A stretch of DNA of 64,000 bases from Cystobasidiomycetes sp. EMM_F5. Taxonomy: Eukaryota. This document shows, piece by piece, positions 16,169-60,600 of this stretch. The stretch's first letter is position 1. Each line of letters opens with the position of its first letter. A program made the position numbers and the translations under genes. The notes beneath the pieces were generated by a model. That model was not told where the DNA came from. It saw nothing but the letters and a program-made list of their open reading frames with translations, and ran no database searches. The stretch covers positions 682,001-746,000 of the forward strand of contig JBPGPT010000002.1 of assembly GCA_051047955.1 (NCBI GenBank), written 5' to 3'.

Positions 16169-17453
16169 CTATGCTGCAGCCGGGCCCTGTCAACGGTGTC
16201 AGAATGCAATGCAAATCGAGCTGAGGTACGTATCTACCTTTTGAGACTTCTGTCCCTTGTGATTGAAACCCTGGAAGTGAGTAGCGCCGACGCTCCAGTG
16301 GCCCGACTGCAGCTGAAGCTGCTCGTATGGTACACCTCGCATGGCCCACAGGCTGTTCGCTTAGGTCAGCCGGTGTATGGGCCTGCACGAGAGTCACCTT
16401 ACTGGAATAGCAGGAAGCACGGCTTTGCGAGTAAGTCTAGGCAGCCGTAAAAGACAGCTTCGGCATTGGTGCTAATCACGTTCCCGCCTTCGCACAGTCC
16501 CCAAGCTGGAAGAAAAGATGTCTTAGTGTTAAGAACATTTCTATGACACAATGTCAGAGACTCACCGACAGGGTATAGAAGCCATAATCCTGCCAAAACG
16601 AGCATTGAGGACACGTACGCCGAGTGTGCGTGATATCCGATAAGCTTGGCAGTCGTACGGGCTGGTCCAAGCAGCACGTAGAGTACGAAGAAGAGCGCAA
16701 CGCAACTGCCTGTGAAGTATGCCCATTTGTACGAGGATGGAACTAGGGCGCCGATGAGACCTCCGACTATCATGACGAGCTGTGGACGTGTGATCGTTAG
16801 TGATCTGCGGAGACTGCCAAAGCCTGTCAGAAACCTACATCAAAGAATATGGTGATCATTATGTATGACAGAGGCAAGCCCGTTGCGAGGAGTAGTTCCA
16901 GTAACAGCAGTGGAGTGGCTGCCGAAGACAGTGTAACGTCAACAGGTCTCTCCCCTCATTGCACAATGACGTCCGACGTACTTATTGCCCAGTCAATGTA
17001 TCGCACGTACCATATCGATCGAGTGTACGGGTTGATTGCTGTATTAGTCTGTATGGAATCGTGCACTTCAGATACGTCTGCGCATCAATAAGTCGGGCAG
17101 CACTTACAAAGAGGTCGGATTTATATCTGACAAATTCGACGTAGACGGCCGTCGAGCCGAGATCTGAGGCCATTGAAAAGTAGGCGACGCTTGCTGTAAA
17201 CAGGATCGCTACGCCGATTGTATGAAAGGCGCGCTTTCCCTCTGTCGGAATACCAATGTATAAATAGACCATCAAACTTCGTTGACTGAAAGACTGGGAA
17301 GCGCTACATACCCGGTACAGTGATGAGCCAGGCCGATGTACCGAGTCCTGTCGCAAACATGACCGCAAACACGGCCCACAGGAAGTCGGAGCCTGCGTCC
17401 GTGAGGTCGGCATTGGCTGTGCGGGGATTCGCCTGGAAGACGGAGCTGGACAT
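16169..17453 (-). CDS. Fungal microbial (type 1) rhodopsin/opsin, ORP/CarO-like, with retinal-binding Lys
   Basis: Spliced helix C RYIDWAITTPLLLLEL, helix F LWLLYP, helix G FYGCLDLLAKP; N-terminal NPRTANADLTDAGSDFLWAVF. Confidence 0.92.
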
Positions 17454-17948
17454 GGTGTCAAAGATGACAGCTTTCAAGCAAAGTTGTACAAGATTAGTTG
17501 AAAGCAGCAGTCGAACCTGGCTGTCGGGAAGTTCGGAGTGTACTTTTCTCGCTCGGGCAGGCCGCTTCTGCTGGATCTATGACGTGAAGACGCCAGCGCC
17601 CTGATCGAATGCAATATAGGCAAGAGAGTACATATGGATTAAAGCGTCGTTATCGGTGAATGTATTGGCATGCAAGAGCTCCAGTTGATGGACAAAAGAT
17701 CTGGCTTCGGAGTCCAGTAGATGAATCAGGCTGTATTTCTCAATTTCAAGCTGGTTCGAGCGCAGTTTACGGACTGGGAGAGAGGTTAAATGATTAAGAA
17801 GGCTGCGGGAGGAAAGACTGAGCGTCAGAAGCTCGTCGAGCAACGCAGTGTACGAGTACAATCATCAATGTCCTAGAAATTGGACAGGCAGGACGATGTC
17901 ATTATCAGATAATCAAAAGGGTGCTACTGTTTCAGCTTTCGTGCAAAC

Positions 17949-33138: not shown

Positions 33139-34155
33139 ATGGGAAAGACCAGAGATGACAAGAAGGCCTACATGGACAAGCTCTTGCAGCTCATGCAAGA
33201 CTACCCGTCCATCTTTGTCGTCAACGTCGACAATGTGTCGTCCAACCAGCTGCATCAGATCCGTCAGTCGCTGCGCAAGGAAGGAGAGAATGCCAGTGTC
33301 ATCCTGCTCGGAAAGAACACCATGATTCGACGTGCAATCCGTAACGCCATCGCCGACAACCCACAGTACGAGCGATTCCTGCCACACGTCAAGGGCAACG
33401 TCGGTTTCGTCTTCACCAAGGGCGACCTAAAGGCCGTTCGCGAGCTCATTCTGAACAACAAGGTCGCTGCCCCAGCCAGAGCTGGCGCCGTTGCTCCAGA
33501 TGATGTCTACATTCCAGGTGGAAACACTGGTATGGAACCAGGAAAGACCTCCTTCTTCCAGGCTCTCGGTATTCCCACAAAGATTGCCCGTGGTACAATC
33601 GAAATTGTATCGGACGTCAAGATCTTGGCTGCCGGCGCTCGTGTCGGTACTTCCGAAGCTACCCTGCTCAATATGCTCAACATCTCGCCATTGTCAGTAA
33701 TCCCTTTTCTCAATCCACTTTTGACGGTTTTGCTAATCCAACCCAAATGCTATAGCACCTATGGTATGACCGTTGTTCAAATCTACGACCAGGGCAACGT
33801 CTTCGCCCCGGATGTACTCGACATTGACGAAAAGGTACTCATTGACCGATTCATGAGCGGAATCACCACCATTGCTTCCATCTCGCTGGCCCTCAACTAC
33901 CCGACCATCGTCTCCGTCATGCACTCGCTCGTCAACTCGTACAAGAACCTGCTCGCAGTTTCTATTGCGACAGACTACACCTTCGATGCTGCCGAAAAGG
34001 TCAAGGCTTACCTCGAGAACCCAGAGGCTTTCGCTGCTGCCGCCCCGGCCGCTTCCGAAGCCGCACCAGCTGCTGAAGCCGCGCCAGCTGCAAAGGCAGT
34101 CGAAGAAGAGAAGGAGGAATCAGACGACGACATGGGCTTCGGTTTGTTCGACTAA
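33139..34155 (+). CDS. RPP0: 60S acidic ribosomal protein P0 (uL10)
   Basis: [26 protein letters not shown]-terminal [13 protein letters not shown]; in-frame intron of about 63 nt near 33693-33756. Confidence 0.98.
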
Positions 34156-34676: not shown

Positions 34677-35430
34677 ATGGTCACCTTCTACATTCGTGCT
34701 ATACTCAGCATATTCTTGTCCATGGCACTCGCCTTACTGGCTGTGCCTATCCCGCAAGCCAGTATGTCGTATCTAGCGTTGGCGAACAACCTTTGAAATG
34801 CATTTCTCCTACTGACGCACGTACATCACGCACCATCCTTAGCCATTACAGCCTACTTCGCCCCGCCCGGTCTGCCTAGCGAATCATACGCCGTAGTCAC
34901 GACTTTGCCATCAAGCGAGGTGCTCTTGTACGGTCAGCGCACTGCAGCGGGAGGATCGACCTTCTATGGTCAGTCCATCGTGCTCTTGTACACCACATAC
35001 ATCGAATGCGCTGGATAAGCTGAATATGAATCTCCTCCAGACATCGTCGATGCTAATCCTACTGAAATTGCCGTCATTGAGGTGGACGGATCGGGTAAAT
35101 TCGTGCAAGCTGTTGACTGCGTCAAGATTCGGAGCAATTCGATAGCATGTGGAGGGGTATGTAACTTTCCTGCTATAATGCCAGTAACAAAGTGCTAAGC
35201 ACAATCGCTTCCAGTTTGTCAACGACCTCTCGACCACACAGGTGTATGAACACACGGGAACATTTTTCTCTACCATCCTCACAGCCGCAGGAACCTCCGC
35301 AGTACCTACCACTCTGCCCACCTCGTTCCAGGCAGCCTTGTCTAGCGGCCTGAGTGAACTGTTGTCAATCGCGGACACCGTTACCGCTTTTGCAACTGTC
35401 ACGGCTCTGCCAGGCTGGGCATCGCGCTGA
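34677..35430 (+). CDS. Small secreted protein, unknown family, paralog 1 (4 exons)
   Basis: Signal peptide MVTFYIRAILSIFLSMALALLAVPIPQA; spliced TITAYFAPPGLP..DIVDANPTEIAVIEVDGSGKFVQAVDC..IACGG..TVTALPGWASR*. Confidence 0.8.
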
Positions 35431-35908
35431 AGCGAGAGTCGGGTAATGGTTCTGTGGGGCCTTGCTGAATGGACAAGCATAGTGGTCGAAACATTAATAA
35501 GCAGATTCGAATGTCGTATACTGCGAATGCTGCTCTTCTTGATCGGAAAGAAACGAAAGTGGGTGTAATTAGAATGATCTAGCCATTGAAAGAACAATGT
35601 TTGTGAATGGGTTGCGGCCTTTGTTTTCGCACTGATGTCGTTGTTCCGAAGATACATACTTTGCCACCCTCGGTCACGCGTAAAGCCGTATGCTATGCTC
35701 GGTCTGGAAGCAACAGCTATATTAGCCTAAGCTCGGAACACGCTGAATATGCGGGCTCACTCTTATTGCTACTTGTCACGGAACACCTGAGGCTCGCTCG
35801 TTCCTTGCCTATCCGTGTTGGCAAAGCTTCTTGCAGGCTGTGTCACGGTGCTCCTCCTCAGGCTCGCAGCTTTCTCCTATATCCTCTACCACACGGACTG
35901 ATATCAGG

Positions 35909-36638
35909 ATGCTCTGCTGGCCCGCACAAGCCGTCGTGGCTGCAGCTTTGTTGCCCTTCGCTTTCACCTCAGCTGCACCCGTAGCGCAAGCAAGTCAGTA
36001 CAGCAACCCTTACGGCACACCATGCCTGACTTTACCTCATCTACCAGCGATAACTGCTTTCGTTGCGCCGCCTGGAGTTCCACATGCGACCTATTCAGTG
36101 GTCGCCTCCCTGTCAAGCGAAGTCGTGCTATCGGGTCAACGGACGCTTTCAGGCGGGTCAACCGTTTACGGTAAGTTGCGAAGCATACGAATCCAAGCAC
36201 CGAATCACCGCACTTTTCTTATTCTGTTCTGTTAGATATCATCGAAGCCGACCCTACCGAGGTCATAGCCATCGAGTACGATGGCACTGGAAAGTTTGTT
36301 CAGGTCGTCGACTGCACGAGAGAGGGAGCCAATGAAACGATTGTCGAATGTGGTGCAGTGAGTGCTCCCCATCATGTCCGTTAAATTCCTGCCACAAGCT
36401 AATCTGGCTCTCAATTGCCCAGGTCGTAAATGGCCCGACTACAACACAACTGTACTACTTTAACGGAACAGGCTCTTCGTACAATATCACAGCAACGGCG
36501 CCTTCGTCCATCCCTACCTCGTTGCCCAGCTCGTTCGAATCCTCCATTTATAGCGGTTTAGACAATGTCGTCTCTATCGCTACGGCAGTGTCCAATTATA
36601 TCACTGTAACAGCTCTGCCTAGCTGGGCTAGTCGATGA
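35909..36638 (+). CDS. Small secreted protein, unknown family, paralog 2 (4 exons)
   Basis: Signal peptide MLCWPAQAVVAAALLPFAFTSAAPVAQA; spliced TITAFVAPPGVP..DIIEADPTEVIAIEYDGTGKFVQVVDC..VECGA..TVTALPSWASR*. Confidence 0.8.
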
Positions 36639-37213
36639 TAGACCCGAGTGGCCGGACGTCTGTAAGACGTAAATGATTCAATGCTGCGTGCCGGTTCCTT
36701 CGTCTTTACATAATGTCCATCATAGTTCAATATGCTAAGAGGACGCCTTCCACCCGGGCTTTCGATAGCCGTGTGCCGTGGCATTCTGAGAGTAAGAAAG
36801 CAGTCACGAGAACCACTCTAGCCTCACGCCGCGGTCGTGAACATCGGTAGAGACGCATACTGTAGTCGATCGGCCGTGCCTGGAGAAGCGGGGCAGTTTT
36901 AACACAATCTCAGGAGAGCACCAAGTATGCCGGACCATGGCTTGCATTCCCGCCTTTGGCACTTCAGCAGCCTCATCAACACGTCATCATACTATACTCT
37001 GCGACGAACGTATGATCAGCCTCCTTTAGGCAGGCTCGTCATTCTTCGGTCTCTGCAAATGCCGGTGCTCCACATGCGCGTAGAGGGAATTTGTCTGATA
37101 AATCTGCGGCTTTCTTCTACCCGTCCTTTGTCTTTACCCTCTTCGACTATTTTCTGCCCGACTGGTCGATTCATCTGCTCCGCATCTGATATACTACTAT
37201 ACACGGCGCTACC

Positions 37214-38026
37214 ATGATTGGAAAATTGACTGTTGTGGCACTCGCGGCATTCGCCTTACAAGCAGTAGCTTCACCTCTCCCACAAGCAAGTAAGTAGTAA
37301 AAGGCCTCAAGCGGCTCGGCTGTTCATCTCCGGCAAGCCTTGCTAGCAATAATTACTGACATGCTTCGATAACAGCTGTGACGGCCTTGATTCCGCCGCC
37401 AGGACTACCTACTGGCTCCTATGTTGCAGTAGGAACTGGTTCTGCTGGTGATGTTACCGTCATCGCACAGCGCGTCGCAACTGTCAATGGTTCGGCAACC
37501 ACTGTATACGGTCAGTCGACAGTCCGCAACTATCGGAAAATGGCCCACTGACATAGACTTGCAGACGCTGCGGATCTCGGACCTTCGCAAGTTGCCTTTG
37601 TTGAAGCTGGCGGCGACGGCAAGATTATGCAAGGAGTCGTGTGCCAGGCCTCGAGCAATGGAACTGTCAATTGTCTGGGCGTAAGTTTGCTGTCGAATCT
37701 CACTTTTGCCCTGCTGAGCATCCTGTTATGTTCAGGCCGTAAACGGACAAAATACAACATACGCTTATGTTCTTCGAGCATCTGCATCCCCGACCGTCGT
37801 AACGGCACTCGGCCTCACTGCCTTGCCTACGGCCATCATCACGGCGCTCCCTGCCTTGGCATCCGGTGCAGCAGCCTTCTCTGCAGCAGTTGCATCGGTT
37901 CCTCCAGTATCTACGGTCTCTGTCTTGCCTGGCTTTGTTGGCCAGAACGTCACTATCTCTAACAGTACAATGATGGCCAACAGCACCATATCTGCTTCCG
38001 CTTCCAGGTCGATGACATCTGCCTAA
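37214..38026 (+). CDS. Small secreted protein, unknown family, paralog 3 (4 exons, Ser/Thr tail)
   Basis: Signal peptide MIGKLTVVALAAFALQAVASPLPQA; spliced TVTALIPPPGLP..DAADLGPSQVAFVEAGGDGKIMQGVVC..VNCLG..TVSVLPGF. Confidence 0.78.
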
Positions 38027-38177: not shown

Positions 38178-38933
38178 TCATAATCGCTTTTCAGGCGTGA
38201 CCTTGATCATGAGCGGCCATTTCGTTGATCTTTGCACTACTTTGCCTTCCTCGTCTATATCTTCCCAATGCGGATTGAACCAATACACGTCCCTGAAGCC
38301 GTATCTCTCATATAAGCCCATGCCTTGTGGAGAACTCGTTAAAGCCATAGTGGACCCTTTGTCCGCGGAGCCGGTCGACATAGAGTCCAGGGCGTGTTGG
38401 AGAAGCTTCGCTCCAATCCCGAGGCGTTGATAGCCATTGTGAACGAACAGATGACTCAAGTACCTTGGTAGTATGGTATCAAGCTTGACCAAGCATAATT
38501 GTCAACATACTCACCAGCTGTCATCTCCATAGTACTCTACCTTGACCCGAACGCCTTCCTGGCGAATCTGCTCTGCCAGCTCGTGATTGACTTCCGGGTC
38601 TCGGTCGTCATCAGTCTGATCGTTGTTTTGAACAACTCTTTTGTGCTTGTCCGCAGGATCTTGATATATCGTATAACCAACTATCTGCTGCTGAGCGGGA
38701 GCTGTCCTAATCGTAGCGACGATGAAGGTCTTGGCCGGATCGTTGAATTCCTTGAGCAGATCTCGCTCGTTTCGTGCGAATCTTTCAGACTGAGTAACGT
38801 CGGACCGCCTCAGCCGCCAGGGATAAATGGACGTGTACGTCAGACAGCGTTCTCCCCATATTTCAGCACACGAGGGTAGATCCTGCGACTGTGCCGGTCG
38901 CAGCGAAAGTGTCGAGATATCTTTTCTGGCCAT
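38178..38933 (-). CDS. GNAT-family N-acetyltransferase (2 exons)
   Basis: YLSHLFVHNGYQRLGIGAKLL acetyl-CoA motif A; SSPQGMGLYERYGF motif B; N-terminal LRPAQSQDL. Confidence 0.9.
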
Positions 38934-48582: not shown

Positions 48583-50420
48583 ATGGGATTCCAGCACTGG
48601 ATCTCCTCGGCGGCTAAAGCCGTGACAGGCTTCTTCAAGCCACCAACAGTCGACGTGCATGACAACAATCCAAGAGTCTTTCCGGGCGGCGAGACTGAAA
48701 ATGACGCTGCCCGAGCTTTCGAAGGTGCTGCACAGGCACTGAATCTTCCGCAGACTGCTGCCAACGTTGGCCAAGTAGCAATGCACGAAGCCAATCCTCC
48801 ACAAACTTCGGCCAATCTCTTACAAGGAGCAGCACACGAAGTCAATTTTCCACAAACTTCGGCCAACCTCTTACAAGGAGCAGCACACGAAGCCAATCCT
48901 CCACAAACTTCGGCCAACCTCTTACAAGCAGCAGCACACGAAGCCAATTTTCCACAGACAGCATACAACCTCATGCAAGGAGCTGCACGCGCAGCCGACC
49001 TTCCACAGACTGCCGCCAACATTGGCGAAAACGCCGTCCATGAAGCAGTGCAGAGCAAACCCGCTGACACTCTGGCAAGCGGGGCCTACCATTTTTTTAC
49101 GGGCACTGGCATAGGCAGCCTGCTCACAGGCGCCGGATCGCTGGTCCCTGGTTGGGGGAAGAAGAACGAGGCCGAGGACAGAGGGAGAGCTGCCCTACAA
49201 ACTGCAGCCGGCCAGCAACGCCAGGCTGAAGCTCATGGCAGAGCTGCAGAAACTACTGCCGTGAGTCAGAGAGCACAGGCCGAGGCTCATGCGAGAGCAG
49301 AAGAGGCTACAGCAGCGACAATCAATCAGCAGCGTGCTGTCGAAACGCAGCAGCGAGTCGAAGAACACGTCCACCGACGCAAGCTCGCTATTCCAGCGGA
49401 TCTGGAGGCAGAAGAGGCGAGAGCACTTAAAATGGCCAGGCGTGGGGCCGATGCCTTGGAACTAAAGATCGATACATTTGCTCCTTCCGTTGATAATAAT
49501 ACGACAGTAGAAATCGCAGCGATTGTCGACGGGTGAGGCTACTGCCTACATTGACGCGTGTTTGCTCGTGACAACAAAACTGAACTAGGTAGCAATAACA
49601 GAGGTATTGGAACGCCTCTCGCAAAACACATGGCGCAACAGTTGGACTTGGTGATAGCCGATGTGAGGTCAGCCCTTCTACAGCAATCACACTATGACCT
49701 GACGGTATTTGAAAGGCAACACACAAATATGGTGCTGGGCGTATTGAAAAGCTGGGCAATGTTGGTGTCTTCGAAAGCTTGGAGCGAATATGGTCTGTCA
49801 GACCACGTCTTATTGGTCAATATAATCAAACACGACTATCCATACTGAAGAAATTGGGGCTTAGCCAGACAGTTCCTGGGTTGCGCGCTTATATCCGTCA
49901 AGGTGCACGGTGGGATGCCATCTATCTGCGCATGGAGCTCGTCATACTTTACATAAGGGACCCAGCAATAAACTCGTCGAATGGTTTTAAGCGTCTCGGC
50001 GCACAGCGTGTCCGGCACGCAGTAATGTGTGGCAATGTCGTAGACCTGCGCAAGAGCATCAATGCAGTTTATTTTACCCCGCCAAGTATTCACTTCTTGG
50101 GCATTGTTACAGATGAACTTCCCCAATTCGTTATAAAGGAAATCTACACGAACAACGAAACGACCCGAGACGGTCATTTCCGCTTCGTCGCGCTCGGAGA
50201 AGGACGTCCGAAGGAAGCGACTGCCGACCAAGTAGGGGACGATGGAGTCTACTATGAAATACTCAGACAAAGCGTTCCTCACCTACGGCAAGAAGCCGGT
50301 TCCGATCGCAAAGATTTAGCCACAGCCTACTGGGACCTTAATGACTGCACTGAAGGCCTGGCCTTCGAACGAGAAGGCAGGTACTGGACACGACCGTTCG
50401 AAGGCGGTGACGAGATGTAG
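48583..50420 (+). CDS. Orphan protein with 17-aa tandem repeats, Gly-rich hydrophobic segment, coiled coil and globular C-terminal domain (3 exons)
   Basis: ORFs 48583, 49558 and 49779 are joined in frame by two GT-AG introns of about 60 nt (VDG/NNRGIG; VIAD/ATHKYG). Confidence 0.6.
48733..49038 (+). repeat. Coding minisatellite, 6 x 51 bp
   Basis: Unit cacgaagccaatcctccacaaacttcggccaa(t/c)ctcttacaaggagcagca; units start at 48733, 48784, 48835, 48886, 48937, 48988; central copies near-identical, flanking copies degenerate. Confidence 0.92.
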
Positions 50421-53335: not shown

Positions 53336-55842
53336 ATGTCGCGAGCCATCGATGCTGCAGCTGTGGATGAGAGACTTGCGCAGGAACTGTCTGCCGCTCG
53401 AGAAGCGTTTTCTAATTATCGCGAGAGTCTTAAAGTGACACCCCAGGATGCATGCTTTCGCCAAGATGACCGTTCTATTCGTCGAGCCCATGCAGAAGCC
53501 ATCAAACAGAATGCTCTTAGCAGGCATAGGCTCCGCAAGATTGTTATCGGGGCTGGATCAAAGCATCATTCGAACATGGACAATGATGCCTGCAAGCATG
53601 CATTGTACTCTGGAAAGAATGGCTTACGAGACATGAAGATGGAGGGTGTTAATTACGGTACGTAATAGTAGCTCGGCATGCTGGAAGTCCTGCTAATTAT
53701 TCGTACAGGCAGTGTCCTTGTTCTCCAAATTGTGGCGCAAAGCTACCGGAACGCTGCGTTGCAGCTATTGGTCTCTGACAGTGCCGGCTGGCTAGTCAGA
53801 GTTGCTCTATACCACGCTAGCGTATCTCGTGAGAAGCAACTGCTGCCCGATACCGTTTTGTGTAGGTGATCGTTTGCATACGTCTCGTACATCCTGCTGA
53901 CTCTCGTTCCGCTACCAATCCAAGACGTTAAAGAGCCATTCATATGTCGGGGCAGCGGCGATTCGTACTTCATCCGGGTCGACTCACCCAGCGACATAGT
54001 GATATGGCCTTCGATACATCAGCTACTTCGTCCGCCTACTGCATTCAAACGCATCACATCACCGGAAGAGGCCAAAGAAATCGGGTCTCGCTTTTTCGTC
54101 GAAGGACACTACCATGAATCCCTACATGCGTATCGACAGGGCTTATTCTGGTACTCCGCCTCAAATACAACCACCGCTCTTTTAGCGCTCAATTGCGCTG
54201 CTGCCTTCCTGAAGCTGGACAAGCCACACTCTGCTCTCGATGTGCTCGCGGAATATTGCTCTGACGAGCATTTAAACGAAATCCAGCAAGACAAAGTCGT
54301 CCATCGAGCGCTCTTAGCATGCAAGGCAATGCCAGACCGTCCGGTAGAAGCTGTCTTCGCCACGCTGCAACCGTCCTTTCGAGCACGACTACAGCGAGAC
54401 GAACATAAATTTTTGCGAGACCTCGTGACCAAGGGCCATAGAAGTGCCGAATTTCCGATAGCGTGGATTGATACTTTCCAGCAGGTCAAACGGGGCGAAG
54501 CTCCTCAGTTGGCCGACTTCACCCACCCAAGCTTGGTAGTGAGAGACGTCAATGGGAAAGGTCGCGGGATTTTTGCGGGTCAGAATATCGCCAAGGGGAC
54601 CCTTCTCATCGTAGCAAGACCGCTTGCGCAAACTTCCGAGACTCCGGACAATCATGCCCTCGTTTCGGGCTTGAATCTGGCCACGGACTCGCTTGATCCG
54701 CCTTCTCATACCAATCTGGTTGCTCAAGTATTTGATGCGCTAGCAGAAGACCCCTCGATCGCAGTCCAACTGGATAGCTTATATGCTGGTCCACACTTTC
54801 CCAGACCAGCGCCTGGTTCGGATCCGGTTGATGTACAGACGCGGACCAAAGTCAGCTTGGATGCCGGGCGAGCAGAAGCAATTTGTGCCTATAACTCCTT
54901 CCATCTGGGCTGCATGACGCGACCTCTTGTGGGGCCAGGTCATGCGGATGCCGACGACGACGAAGCAGAATCAGGACTAGCTCTATACGGCTTCCCATCC
55001 TTTCTTAATCACGCTTGTATCGGCAATGCGGCCTATTCTTTTCTCAAAGATCGCTTTATCCTGCGGTCCCTTGATGATATTGCAGCGGGAGATGAAATTC
55101 TAGATTCGTGAGTTGTACCAATGCCAATATTTCCAACGTATTTCGCTTATGCCGCATCTACAGATACTGCGATGGATCAGCCAATCTACTTCAGCGAAGG
55201 TCCCGCTTTGGCAGGTTTGGCTTTACGTGTACCTGCAATTTGTGCCGCTTGGATAAGCAAGATGGGATGGATAGTGTCAAGAGACGACGCGATCTCGCTC
55301 GAGAGTGGGAGAAAATGACCAGCAGATCTGGGCTCACGATTGAGGAGATTCAGTGGTTTTGCGATGAGGTTAACGCAACATACTCCAGCAAACGATCGAC
55401 TCTTAGACCGGAAATGTTCAGGATATATCGCCAGACTAGCGAATGCTACGCGAGTACACCAGACGAAGCCCAACAAGCGTTTCAGGCCGATCTGAACGCA
55501 CTGAAGAGCATTGGAGCAACCTTCGCAATCACGCTTTCCAAGCAGTCTACTACTGTAGACAGGGAAGAGAGTATCTTCACAAAGTACCCAGTTCTGAAAC
55601 AGCAAGATGCCGTTATCGCATGCATCAAGCTGGCTAATGACTGCATGAACTCAGGGAATACCGGCTTGAGCAGGTTTGTCATCATTGACGCTAAAAAGGA
55701 TTCAGGTGATACTAAGATTTTGAGCTTTTGCAGACTGTGGTTAGCGGATGCTGAACACATTCACGATCTGCTGTTCGGTGCGGGGCTATTTGAGACACGA
55801 ATGGGTCTATTTGCGAAAGAGCGCGGTTGGCGGATTCGTTGA
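53336..55842 (+). CDS. TPR + SET domain protein (SMYD-like putative lysine methyltransferase); start approximate
   Basis: TPR (AKEIGSRFF..LALNCAAAFLKL), SET (GKGRGIFA..GTLL; FPSFLNHAC..IAAGDEILDSY), post-SET FTCTCNLC. Confidence 0.82.
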
Positions 55843-57657: not shown

Positions 57658-60600
57658 TCAATCCGTGCTGTAGACTTCCATGTGAGCCAACTGTAAAAGC
57701 TTCAACGTCTTGATCGGGGTTGGTGGCTTGTTCTCGTCTGTGTCAAAGTCGCTCTCTTCGTCTGATTCGTTACCAGTGGCAGGCCGACGAGGCGGCGGAG
57801 GCGATGATGTATGAGAAGACGGTGGACTCAGTCGACGTTCGTACGGCTCATCATCCTCATCGCCCATGTAGTGATACTCCATACAATCTGGACAGTAAAC
57901 AGTCTGGCCTCTTCGTTGTGGCGGCCCTGGTGGGGCAGGATTTGGTGTAGGGACCGGAGCCTTGAAGATCTTGGGATCTGACTTGCCTTTGAGTACTCGC
58001 TTCCAGTTGACATCGTCTGGCTTGCGCGCAAGCTTTGACCAAGTCTCCAATTCCCCAGGCCAGATGCCTCGCCAAATCAACAAGATTTGACGGTTCTTGT
58101 AAGCATGGCTGCAACCGTCCACAGTGAGCCGGGAGATATCTCTGAATGCATCCTGCGGCAAGAGCTGAATCGCAATATGGGAATATCTGAGTGCAGCGGT
58201 CGTTAAGTCCTGATGGGCCCAGGGTAGAAATACAGGGTAGATCAGATGCTGTGCATCGCGTTGGAGATATTTAAGCCATACCTCAATAAACGCGATTCTC
58301 GCTTCGCGAGTCACGCCAAGACTCTCAAGCATTTCGTCAAGGACAGTCTTGATGTATGGGACCTTTGGCTCTTCTGCTTCAATGCTGATTGGCGGAGGCA
58401 CACCCTTATTGCGGAGACGAATGAGCTTCTTCCTTAGCCGTCCATTACCCTTCGTAGTGTGTGCTTCGTCTCCCGTGCTGGTCTCGCCCTCCATATCATC
58501 AGCATTCTGGCCAGTCGCGGCTGCCATTGTGGTATCCATTGCTTGATTGGTAGGGTTGGCCGCATCGACATCGATTGTGTCAGCTTCGTCACCAGCAGTC
58601 TCTACCGCCGCACTCGAGGTAGTTACTGCATCTTCATTGTTCTCTGCCGTCACGCTACCATTTCCCTCCAAGGTGGACACTGCAGACGCTGCTGCGTGGG
58701 ATCTGGCCTCTGCAGCTCGAGCAGCTGCTTCCCTTGGCGAGAGGCGGTCAGTGGCGTCTTGTCCAACATCGTCACTATCTTCTTCTGCAGCTTCTTGCGA
58801 CATCGCAGTATTCGTGTCAGCAGCAGCAGCAGGCTCAGCTGCAGCACTTGCTGCAGCGTCTGCAGATTGAGTTTCCGGATCAGCCGCGATGTGGGTAGCG
58901 CTGTCCTCAATACCAGCTTGTCCAGCTTCTACGGTCGATGTACGCTCGGTTGTTGCATCATTGGGATCGCCAGGAGCGCCAGCTGAAGGAGTCTTCTTTT
59001 TGCGCTTCGCTTCAGCATCGTAAGCGTGAAGATACTTGGTTCTAACAATGACAGATTGACGCATGACTAGCTGTTTTGTGCAAGGGTTGATCTCGAGACA
59101 ATCGTCATCCTCGTCTGATGGGCAACCCATATCGTCGTAGAGGTCATCTCTCTCGTAGTCCGAATTGAAATAGGAGGAAGCTGTGTTTACCGAATCCGCA
59201 TTTGATGCTTCAGAAGTCACGCTTGCATTGTCTTCGTCAGCCGGCACATCACGCACGACAAGCAGTGGCATTCCCGTCGCGCTGAGAAACCCACTATCAT
59301 GTTGGCCCGCTACCGAATCAGTACTCGTGTTCGCTTGTCCATCCGTAGCAGCCGCTACTGCTGAAGTAGAAGTGGAAGCAACAGGTTGTTCAGCCGTATC
59401 TCCTGCAGCAGGACCACGCCTCCTTGCCGCAGCTCGTCGTTCACGTCTTGTACGTCTCCTCAACTTCTTTTGCTCTCTCCGCTCTGCCCTCAGTTCGTGC
59501 AGCTCACGACGGACTTCGAGCTCAATATCGACGGGCGTCGGATTCTCGCAGACTTCTGCAACGAGATCGAGAACGACGCGTAGTATAGATCCTGGAGATC
59601 CTGTTTCAATTGAAGTGGCAGAGGGAACGGGAGGGGCAGGTGCCGGTACAGCTGCGGGTTGAGCTGTCACGGAGTCTGTAGTGTTTGGACTGTTTGCTGC
59701 GACATTTCCAGCTGCGGAAGAGGATGCAATGACAGTTGTTGCGGGGGCGGATGTGCCCGCGGATGTGCCCGTGATTGGTACAGGTAAGATGCCCTCGTTT
59801 GCTACTATTACGTTTGGTACTCCTTGTCCGGCGGTTCCGTCAGCACCGGTCTGTGCAGCATCAGCGTGGTCTCCTGTACCTTGAGCGGCAGCAACTGAAG
59901 TCTGGGCAGTGACGTATGGCGCTACAGCAACCTGTTCGATGACGGTCGCAGCAGCATCATCAGCGAGTACGGGCTCAGCGGAGGCTGTAACTGCCGGGGG
60001 TGCGGACACGGAGATTTCAGAAGGTGCTTTGACAGATATGTCGGACGGACGCTCCAGGCCCCACAACATTATCTGTCGTCTTGGATGATTGTTGTCTTTA
60101 TCGTAGTCATTCTGCGCAATTGCAATACTTTCAATTATTTGCCTGTTTTTTCGGCACTTTACTGAATAATACAGATACTCACCTCGGTTGGATCAATGTC
60201 CTGCTTGTATGCATGCCAAGTCCTTGCCAAGATTAGTCCAACAACGACCGACGTGATGCCTTTTGCACTAAGGAGATCCTTTACGGGGTAGACGTATACA
60301 AACGATCTTGCCGTTCTCTTCCTCGTCACTGCATACGTAAGTAGACTAGCTGGACTGATACCCGCTTGAGCGACCGTGTGATGTAACGGGAGATCGTCTA
60401 TCGTCACTTGACCGCTCGGATTCGGGTTGTACTCTCCTAGATCCACTTCATCCTGGATCGCGTGCCACACGGGATGTTTGACGTGGTAGAGTTTGATGGC
60501 ATTGAGTGGCAGTTCTTTATCGCATCCGTTGCCTGTAAGAGACGGAACGGCAGAATCGATAAAGTGACCGCATTTGCCTACTGGAATCTTGCTAGAGATG

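Follow-up and report, generated by a model that had tools for sequence, protein, structure and literature searches.

A tandem array of three genes, here termed g1, g2 and g3, is found in a stretch of 64,000 nucleotides from the fungus Cystobasidiomycetes sp. EMM_F5 (contig JBPGPT010000002.1, positions 682,001 to 746,000; hereafter the window). The three are real genes, homologous to one another and kept under purifying selection, and they encode small, apparently secreted proteins of a family that carries no name. We tentatively favour, at somewhat short of an even chance, the interpretation that g1–g3 form a small tandem family of old standing, whose secreted, non-enzymatic products function at the cell wall or within the extracellular matrix. 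In the mechanism proposed here, a signal peptide would be removed, a short run of dipeptides trimmed, and the mature chain would consist of a beta-rich head, a Ser/Thr-rich linker and a helical tail able to hold the protein on a surface. A previous description of the locus, made from the DNA letters and here called the sequence-only reading, was accurate overall, including its statement that no family could be recognised.

Three spliced genes of old common origin

Splicing of the three forward-strand genes gave proteins of 180, 181 and 205 amino acids (Table 1). All nine introns are bounded by GT and AG and measure 54–86 nt, giving four exons per gene, and in all three genes they fall in phases 1, 1 and 0 at three identical alignment columns, which bears out the equivalent positions claimed by the sequence-only reading. 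A CTRAN branch-like word lies no more than 40 nt from the acceptor in eight of the nine. Retention would introduce a stop or a frameshift for every intron except the first of g2 (35994–36047, forward strand), which is stop-free and in frame and would, if retained, add 18 residues with a third cysteine at the mature N-terminus. The spliced models of g1, g2 and g3 are letter-identical to the deposited P0002, P0001 and P0003, labelled hypothetical proteins of a Cystobasidiomycetes fungus; these are independent gene predictions and not transcripts. The shared ending ALP(G/S)WASR reported for the first two paralogs is present in g1 and g2.

Pairwise protein identities among g1–g3 are 49%, 36% and 31%, and 46 of the 174 ungapped alignment columns are invariant. 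The local alignment scores (439, 277 and 209) far exceed the maxima reached in 500 composition-keeping shuffles for each pair (77, 76 and 80). Identity at codon positions 1, 2 and 3 was 60/73/31% for g1–g2, 50/62/29% for g1–g3 and 47/61/30% for g2–g3, and the proportion of differing synonymous sites (pS 0.69–0.80) was above that of non-synonymous sites (pN 0.33–0.48) in the pairs. Silent sites are thus at or near saturation while the first two codon positions are conserved, which identifies the genes as old duplicates under purifying selection. The same saturation precludes a precise value for the dN/dS comparison suggested earlier and a single-site test of positive selection. Introns and spacers of the array show no likeness among the three genes, and the only DNA-level likeness is a single 26-nt match at the coding end, which speaks against recent duplication or conversion. 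The upstream regions share no 6-, 7- or 8-mer promoter words beyond what random triples share. No further copy was found outside the array in the 18.3-Mb genome with exon and whole-protein queries, counts that are lower bounds, and when the profile was run on the window translated in six frames (1978 segments), it returned 11 rows at E≤0.001, every one within the array. Local amplification and divergence, as the sequence-only reading proposed, are supported, the divergence being old.

Table 1. Features of the array and of its immediate neighbours (window coordinates)
Feature	Position	Strand	Remarks
g1 (= P0002)	34677..35430	+	180 amino acids; exons 34677-34761, 34843-34968, 35041-35156, 35215-35430
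g1 likely signal peptide (residues 1-22)	34677..34742	+	hydropathy 2.3, -3/-1 rule; putative cleavage site
g1 three X-Pro/X-Ala dipeptides (residues 23-28)	34743..34760	+	end of exon 1; likely trimmed pro-piece
g1 Cys97-Cys107 (C-x9-C)	35118..35150	+	spans predicted beta-hairpin
g1 predicted tail helix (residues 145-164)	35320..35379	+	moderately amphipathic
g2 (= P0001)	35909..36638	+	181 amino acids; exons 35909-35993, 36048-36170, 36236-36357, 36423-36638
g2 residues 1-22 (likely signal peptide) and 23-28 (three dipeptides)	35909..35992	+	putative
g2 Cys96-Cys108 (C-x11-C)	36313..36351	+	from sequence and model
g3 (= P0003)	37214..38026	+	205 amino acids; exons 37214-37289, 37376-37510, 37565-37680, 37736-38026
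g3 residues 1-19 (likely signal peptide) and 20-25 (three dipeptides)	37214..37288	+	putative
g3 Cys97-Cys107 (C-x9-C)	37642..37674	+	from sequence
RPP0 (ribosomal protein P0), left neighbour	33139..34155	+	PF00466, PF17777; outside array
GNAT acetyltransferase, right neighbour	38178..38933 (start approximate)	-	PF13673; convergent, stop ~150 nt from g3; outside array

Architecture of the predicted proteins

The N-termini of g1–g3 are hydrophobic (hydropathy 1.9–2.3) and by the heuristic -3/-1 rule offer cleavage sites after residues 22, 22 and 19, where a signal peptide would be cut. The residues that follow form, in all three proteins, three in-register X-Pro or X-Ala dipeptides that run up to the border of exon 1. 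Excerpts of PMC9252082 describe Ste13 as cleaving X-Ala and X-Pro dipeptides in the Golgi, and a DPP IV-type peptidase gene in the same genome (PF00930, E 5e-51; L021:1501-2034, G000:C101:134121-135160) is a candidate for the trimming enzyme. Taken together, the register of the dipeptides, the activity of Ste13 and the presence of this gene make it likelier that the motif xPxxQA is a pro-piece removed by trimming than that the signal peptide ends with it. The sequence-only reading had placed xPxxQA at the end of the signal peptide; the N-terminal signal stands on the hydropathy heuristic, and the -3/-1 heuristic puts the motif most likely beyond the signal-peptidase site. Removal of the dipeptides by a Ste13/DPP IV-type peptidase would let the mature chain begin at the start of exon 2.

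Each mature chain has two cysteines. Their spacing, given earlier as x8-10, is in fact C-x9-C in g1 and g3 and C-x11-C in g2. AlphaFold2 was run twice, on alignments of three and four rows, and gave a g2 model and a g1 model with mean predicted local distance difference test (pLDDT) values of 37.2 and 44.9, respectively. Both low-confidence models show consecutive strands over residues ~42–125 and a single helix at ~145–164, with pLDDT 54–67 over residues 51–110 in the better one, and both cysteines lie on adjacent strands of a single predicted hairpin. Such a placement fits a disulfide staple on the hairpin, and the beta-rich, probably disulfide-stapled nature proposed before is consistent with both models as far as the core and the cysteine pair are concerned, the bond itself being read from the position of the cysteines. 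Residues ~29–125 may accordingly be pictured as an up-and-down beta-meander of 7–9 strands, acidic in g1 and g2, with one stapled hairpin, and this head would be the likely part to bind a wall glycan or another surface.

Fold comparison with 48,161 chains gave no Z≥8 for either model, the tool's stated background being 7–8. For the weaker g2 model the first eight rows were barrels of the SAHS or fatty-acid-binding type (best Z 7.1, root-mean-square deviation (rmsd) 3.6, 101 aligned residues, 6% identity). For the better model, open portions of membrane barrels and LolA-like sheets came on top (best Z 7.5, rmsd 3.3, 87 aligned), its calycin match reaching Z 5.9 (rmsd 3.8, 69 aligned). Foldseek against PDB or viral models found nothing at E≤0.001, and the list for the g1 model was rich in avidins (best E 0.09). 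The modelling and Foldseek check proposed in the sequence-only reading thus recovers an up-and-down strand meander, from models of low confidence and with no match above background. With such models the fold evidence reaches as far as a likely beta-meander, which may or may not close into a barrel. Four residues of the head, R60, D70, E83 and K89 in g2 numbering, are invariant in all three proteins.

The region after the head is rich in Ser, Thr and Ala and nearly uncharged. Charged residues number 14, 14 and 8 in the heads of g1, g2 and g3 against 3, 3 and 0 in the tails, and mean hydropathy is 0.17, 0.21 and 0.34 in the heads and 0.74, 0.25 and 1.27 in the tails, where Ser and Thr make up 24–38%. 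In g1 and g2 the predicted helix shows moderate amphipathicity, whereas that of g3 is hydrophobic throughout: the observed moment was reached by 50, 30 and 308 of 2000 shuffles in g1, g2 and g3, respectively. The Ser/Thr-rich amphipathic tail described earlier thus holds for the first two proteins and not for g3. When the best window within the last 75 residues was considered, the moments did not clearly exceed those of shuffles (92, 33 and 330 of 500). In g3, not a single charged residue occurs over positions 124–199, and a 25-residue extension accompanies the uncharged Ala-rich tail; this protein has six N-glycosylation sequons and g2 has three. Set against the transmembrane criterion, the later hydropathy peaks of 1.33, 1.27 and, over 19 residues, 1.81 leave g3 borderline by this heuristic. 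A C-terminus of the kind that receives a glycosylphosphatidylinositol (GPI) anchor is lacking in all three by a hydropathy heuristic (last 15 residues 0.51, 0.03 and -0.16), g1 and g2 ending in Arg, and neither repeats nor Kex2 sites are present. The proposed mechanism would have a Ser/Thr/Pro-rich linker, probably O-mannosylated, lead to a helix of about 20 residues and a final TVxxLP(W/F) segment. This tail, hydrophobic in g3 and amphipathic in g1 and g2, could provide a non-covalent hold on the wall or on a hydrophobic surface in place of a GPI anchor.

Relatives and competing explanations

A profile built from the three sequences and run against 1.84 billion representatives retrieved three proteins at E≤0.001, two of them the window's own and the third P0004 (E 5e-6). 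P0004 comes from a contig of 958 bases; the present genome does not encode it, the best match there being 44%, to g3. The family is hence present in at least one other organism. The protein reads like a fragment translated as an unspliced frame. Its identity to g3 is 48% across an 88-residue part of exon 4, and it also matches g3 where exon 3 begins. Read in a shifted frame, the middle part, which has no match, would accommodate Q-x-V-x-C-x8-C-x-G with a phase-0 donor after it, a pattern that was defined post hoc and that 9 of 2000 shuffles allow. The splice signals checked were compatible in seven of seven cases and would imply introns 2 and 3 at the same positions and one extra intron. Both cysteines and the tail are therefore probably conserved in P0004, judged from these letters, and the Asp and Glu that are invariant in the heads are retained as well. 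Conservation of the tail between species, at the identity seen between g3 and P0004, indicates that it is more than a random stalk. The C-terminus of P0004 is a stretch of alternating Met and Ser, and the extension of g3 likewise holds several Met among Ser/Thr and sequons.

Named families offered no further relative. Pfam gave no match at E≤1 for the nine gene pieces and, for the whole proteins, a single row under the family cut-off (AcrIIA4, E 0.11); NCBIfam gave one row far under its cut-off (E 0.048), and the best values in a PDB sequence search were E 1.2 and 5. Word-index protein searches returned the window's own products alone (1 of 192 candidates; 3 of 8000 scored) and are insensitive here, since they missed P0004. 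Pattern matches were confirmed in none of 596 and none of 250 cases among metagenome contigs and in none of 122 among prokaryote genomes. In the Atlas, the feature neighbours were three unnamed, all-eukaryote clusters of 236–259 amino acids with scores of 0.87–0.88, in which Basidiomycota and Ascomycota are the commonest phyla; a second Atlas search, among named clusters, gave nothing usable. Among titles and abstract openings on Cystobasidiomycetes secretomes, no study of such a family turned up. The label of a novel, lineage-specific domain needs qualifying on two sides: the one outside relative places the family beyond this genome as well, and the Atlas points, if weakly, to unnamed clusters in two phyla. 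One lead is that the head could be a remote branch of a secreted family that is unnamed but widespread in fungi.

Several observations weigh against a wall or matrix role as drawn above. Both structural models are of low confidence, and they disagree on the best fold match, with calycin barrels on top in one and open membrane-barrel sheets in the other. In g2, the hydropathy of the tail barely exceeds that of the head (0.25 and 0.21), and the invariant Arg, Asp, Glu and Lys could just as well belong to a catalytic centre or to a pocket for a ligand. That the dipeptides form a pattern was spotted post hoc, and dipeptide-like starts are common among fungal secreted proteins. As for the wider family, the Atlas scores are below 0.9 and the recognition value of 2278 falls under the tool's mark of 2300, so that the likeness may reflect merely a signal peptide and Ser/Thr richness, and the three-sequence profile retrieved no member of such a family at E≤0.001 among the 1.84 billion representatives.

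Other functions would account for parts of the same evidence. The proteins could be soluble carriers or scavengers of hydrophobic small molecules, in which the helix packs on or caps a calycin-like barrel and the paralogs differ in ligand. The barrels heading the list of the g2 model, the avidins in that of g1 and the buried-type invariant R, D, E and K would suit such a carrier, and the succession of strands, helix and short final strand resembles the order in lipocalins. We nevertheless consider it rather unlikely, as the Z of 7.1 lies inside the background and stems from the pLDDT 37 model, the better model puts open sheets first, Foldseek stayed above E 0.001, and none of the three proteins has a calycin match by sequence in Pfam or PDB. 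The hydrophobic tail could alternatively drive the formation of films or fibrils at air–water or solid interfaces, making g1–g3 self-assembling, surface-active proteins of the SC15 or repellent sort that stand in for hydrophobins. The uncharged stretch and hydropathy peak of g3 and the similar tail of P0004 (0.91) speak for this view, and SC15 is characterised in excerpts of PMC13718623 as a non-hydrophobin with a hydrophilic N-terminal and a hydrophobic C-terminal half. The heads of g1–g3 are not markedly hydrophilic, however, the tail of g2 is weak, and the chains have two cysteines only and neither repeats nor Kex2 sites; we think this improbable, and it partly overlaps with the wall or matrix reading that we favour.

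A role as effectors or in antagonism against a partner organism, be it a host fungus, an alga, a plant or competing microbes, is something we doubt to much the same degree. Like many effectors, g1–g3 are small, secreted, orphan and tandemly duplicated, and effector folds without sequence relation are common according to the excerpted text of PMC10462633. Against it stand the two cysteines of the mature chain, the mere three copies found in the genome, and surroundings of housekeeping genes with ordinary G+C and short spacers in place of a repeat-rich compartment. The divergence is also old and conservative, even if saturation leaves no room for testing individual sites for positive selection. 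Where the sequence-only reading had offered effectors, adhesins, lectins or surface-active proteins, nothing favours an effector or a lectin, given two cysteines, conservation and no sign of rapid change. An enzyme built on a beta-barrel or a meander, such as a cyclase or a hydrolase that modifies the wall, might employ the invariant Arg, Asp, Glu and Lys, two of which persist in P0004. We judge this very improbable: no enzyme family matches, the head has merely ~95 residues, and in the compatible reading of P0004 the position of the Lys is N or S and cannot be Lys. That the genes are chance frames or decayed copies is scarcely credible: the three share their intron positions and keep their frames intact, third codon positions are saturated while first and second ones are conserved, independent predictions are identical, and a relative exists in another organism.

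The array lies, as previously described, between ribosomal P0 on its left and, on its right, a GNAT gene on the minus strand whose Pfam match has E 6e-12 (Table 1); a biotin-protein ligase gene follows beyond the latter. The RPP0 frame of 347 codons is unbroken and contains an apparent short in-frame intron (33691–33756, forward strand) with donor and branch words resembling those of the array. Elsewhere in the window, a forward-strand frame of ~317 amino acids at 48583–49536 carries 4.6 copies of a 51-nt (17-residue) repeat at 48784–49020 and a helical, Ala/Gln/Glu-rich C-terminal half, with no Pfam match at E≤0.01; the next frame, 49713–50420, has no Pfam match either. A fungal opsin-like gene is found at 16399–17473 on the minus strand (PF01036, E 3e-13 for one exon), a SET-domain gene at 53870–55842 on the plus strand (PF00856, E 7e-9), and an acidic low-complexity frame of 844 amino acids without a Pfam match at E≤0.01 at 57658–60192 on the minus strand.

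Comparison with known systems

Some familiar candidates were set aside. Hydrophobins have an eight-cysteine pattern, against two cysteines per mature chain here, and g1–g3 have no Pfam match to them; a search of the genome for the hydrophobin family gave no match, and its control was silent too, making that search uninformative. SsGsr1 owes its activity to glycine-rich repeats, according to excerpts of PMC10269696, and these are absent from g1–g3. A likeness between an N-terminal and a C-terminal TVTA-like motif was within chance by a rough estimate. A term search of a preprint on rust secretomes (10.64898/2026.06.11.731755) for six fold-related terms came up empty, and excerpts of PMC10876731 contain nothing fitting g1–g3.

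Alt a 1-like (AA1) fungal secreted proteins are of comparable size, beta-rich and equipped with a short loop closed by a disulfide. None of the three proteins matches them by sequence in Pfam, which has an AltA1 model, or in PDB. The AA1 fold is also absent from the listed matches of the low-confidence models, a result that does not exclude the fold. With calycins (fatty-acid-binding proteins, tardigrade SAHS, lipocalins and avidins) g1–g3 have in common the up-and-down antiparallel strands of one low-confidence model, but they differ in a Z at background level, in the top rows of the better model and in having no sequence match. Like SC15 of Schizophyllum commune they are small, secreted and without hydrophobin cysteines, and their C-terminal half is the more hydrophobic, clearly in g3 and moderately in g1; the polarity is weak in g2, and the likeness is an analogy by description only.

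A further resemblance is to the widespread secreted or GPI-anchored fungal glycoproteins of the PANTHER PTHR40640 type, such as Aspergillus AFUA_8G04860, which have a signal peptide, about nine strands in succession, a short Cys–Cys hairpin towards the end of the domain and then a Ser/Thr region. The Atlas clusters, fitting in size and taxa, may be this family. A link of g1–g3 to it is about evenly balanced, a lead from the order of strands and the late hairpin, no sequence link having been found by the profile and word-index searches. AFUA_8G04860 is tabulated as 'GPI anchored glycoprotein' in PMC3601126, whereas g1–g3 are without a GPI-like end and have a conserved helix and a terminal motif instead. 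Should the link hold, these small proteins without a GPI anchor would offer a convenient model of that wide, unnamed family. We give little weight to a bolder possibility, in which g1–g3 would represent a new fungal secreted beta-meander domain without a structural family, its conserved hydrophobic helix and terminal strand acting as a GPI-independent module for surface anchoring or assembly, and would serve Cystobasidiomycetes yeasts in place of hydrophobins or as secreted carriers of lipids resembling calycins.

As a three-gene tandem array the locus is unremarkable; no unusual mechanism was found, and the family, real and unnamed, joins many other orphan families of secreted proteins. Small secreted proteins make up 40–60% of fungal secretomes, most of them orphans, as stated in the consulted excerpts of PMC7105643. 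The secretomes of Cystobasidiomycetes are little described, and three old paralogs with an outside relative provide a defined, testable unit from among anonymous orphans, for which the model predicts that the mature chain begins at the border of exons 1 and 2, that it contains one disulfide and that its tail mediates binding to the wall or another surface. Like the class of fungal small secreted proteins, g1–g3 have fewer than 300 amino acids, a signal peptide by the heuristic used and no Pfam domain. Unlike that class label, they define together with their relative a mature unit of ~150 residues with one cysteine pair.

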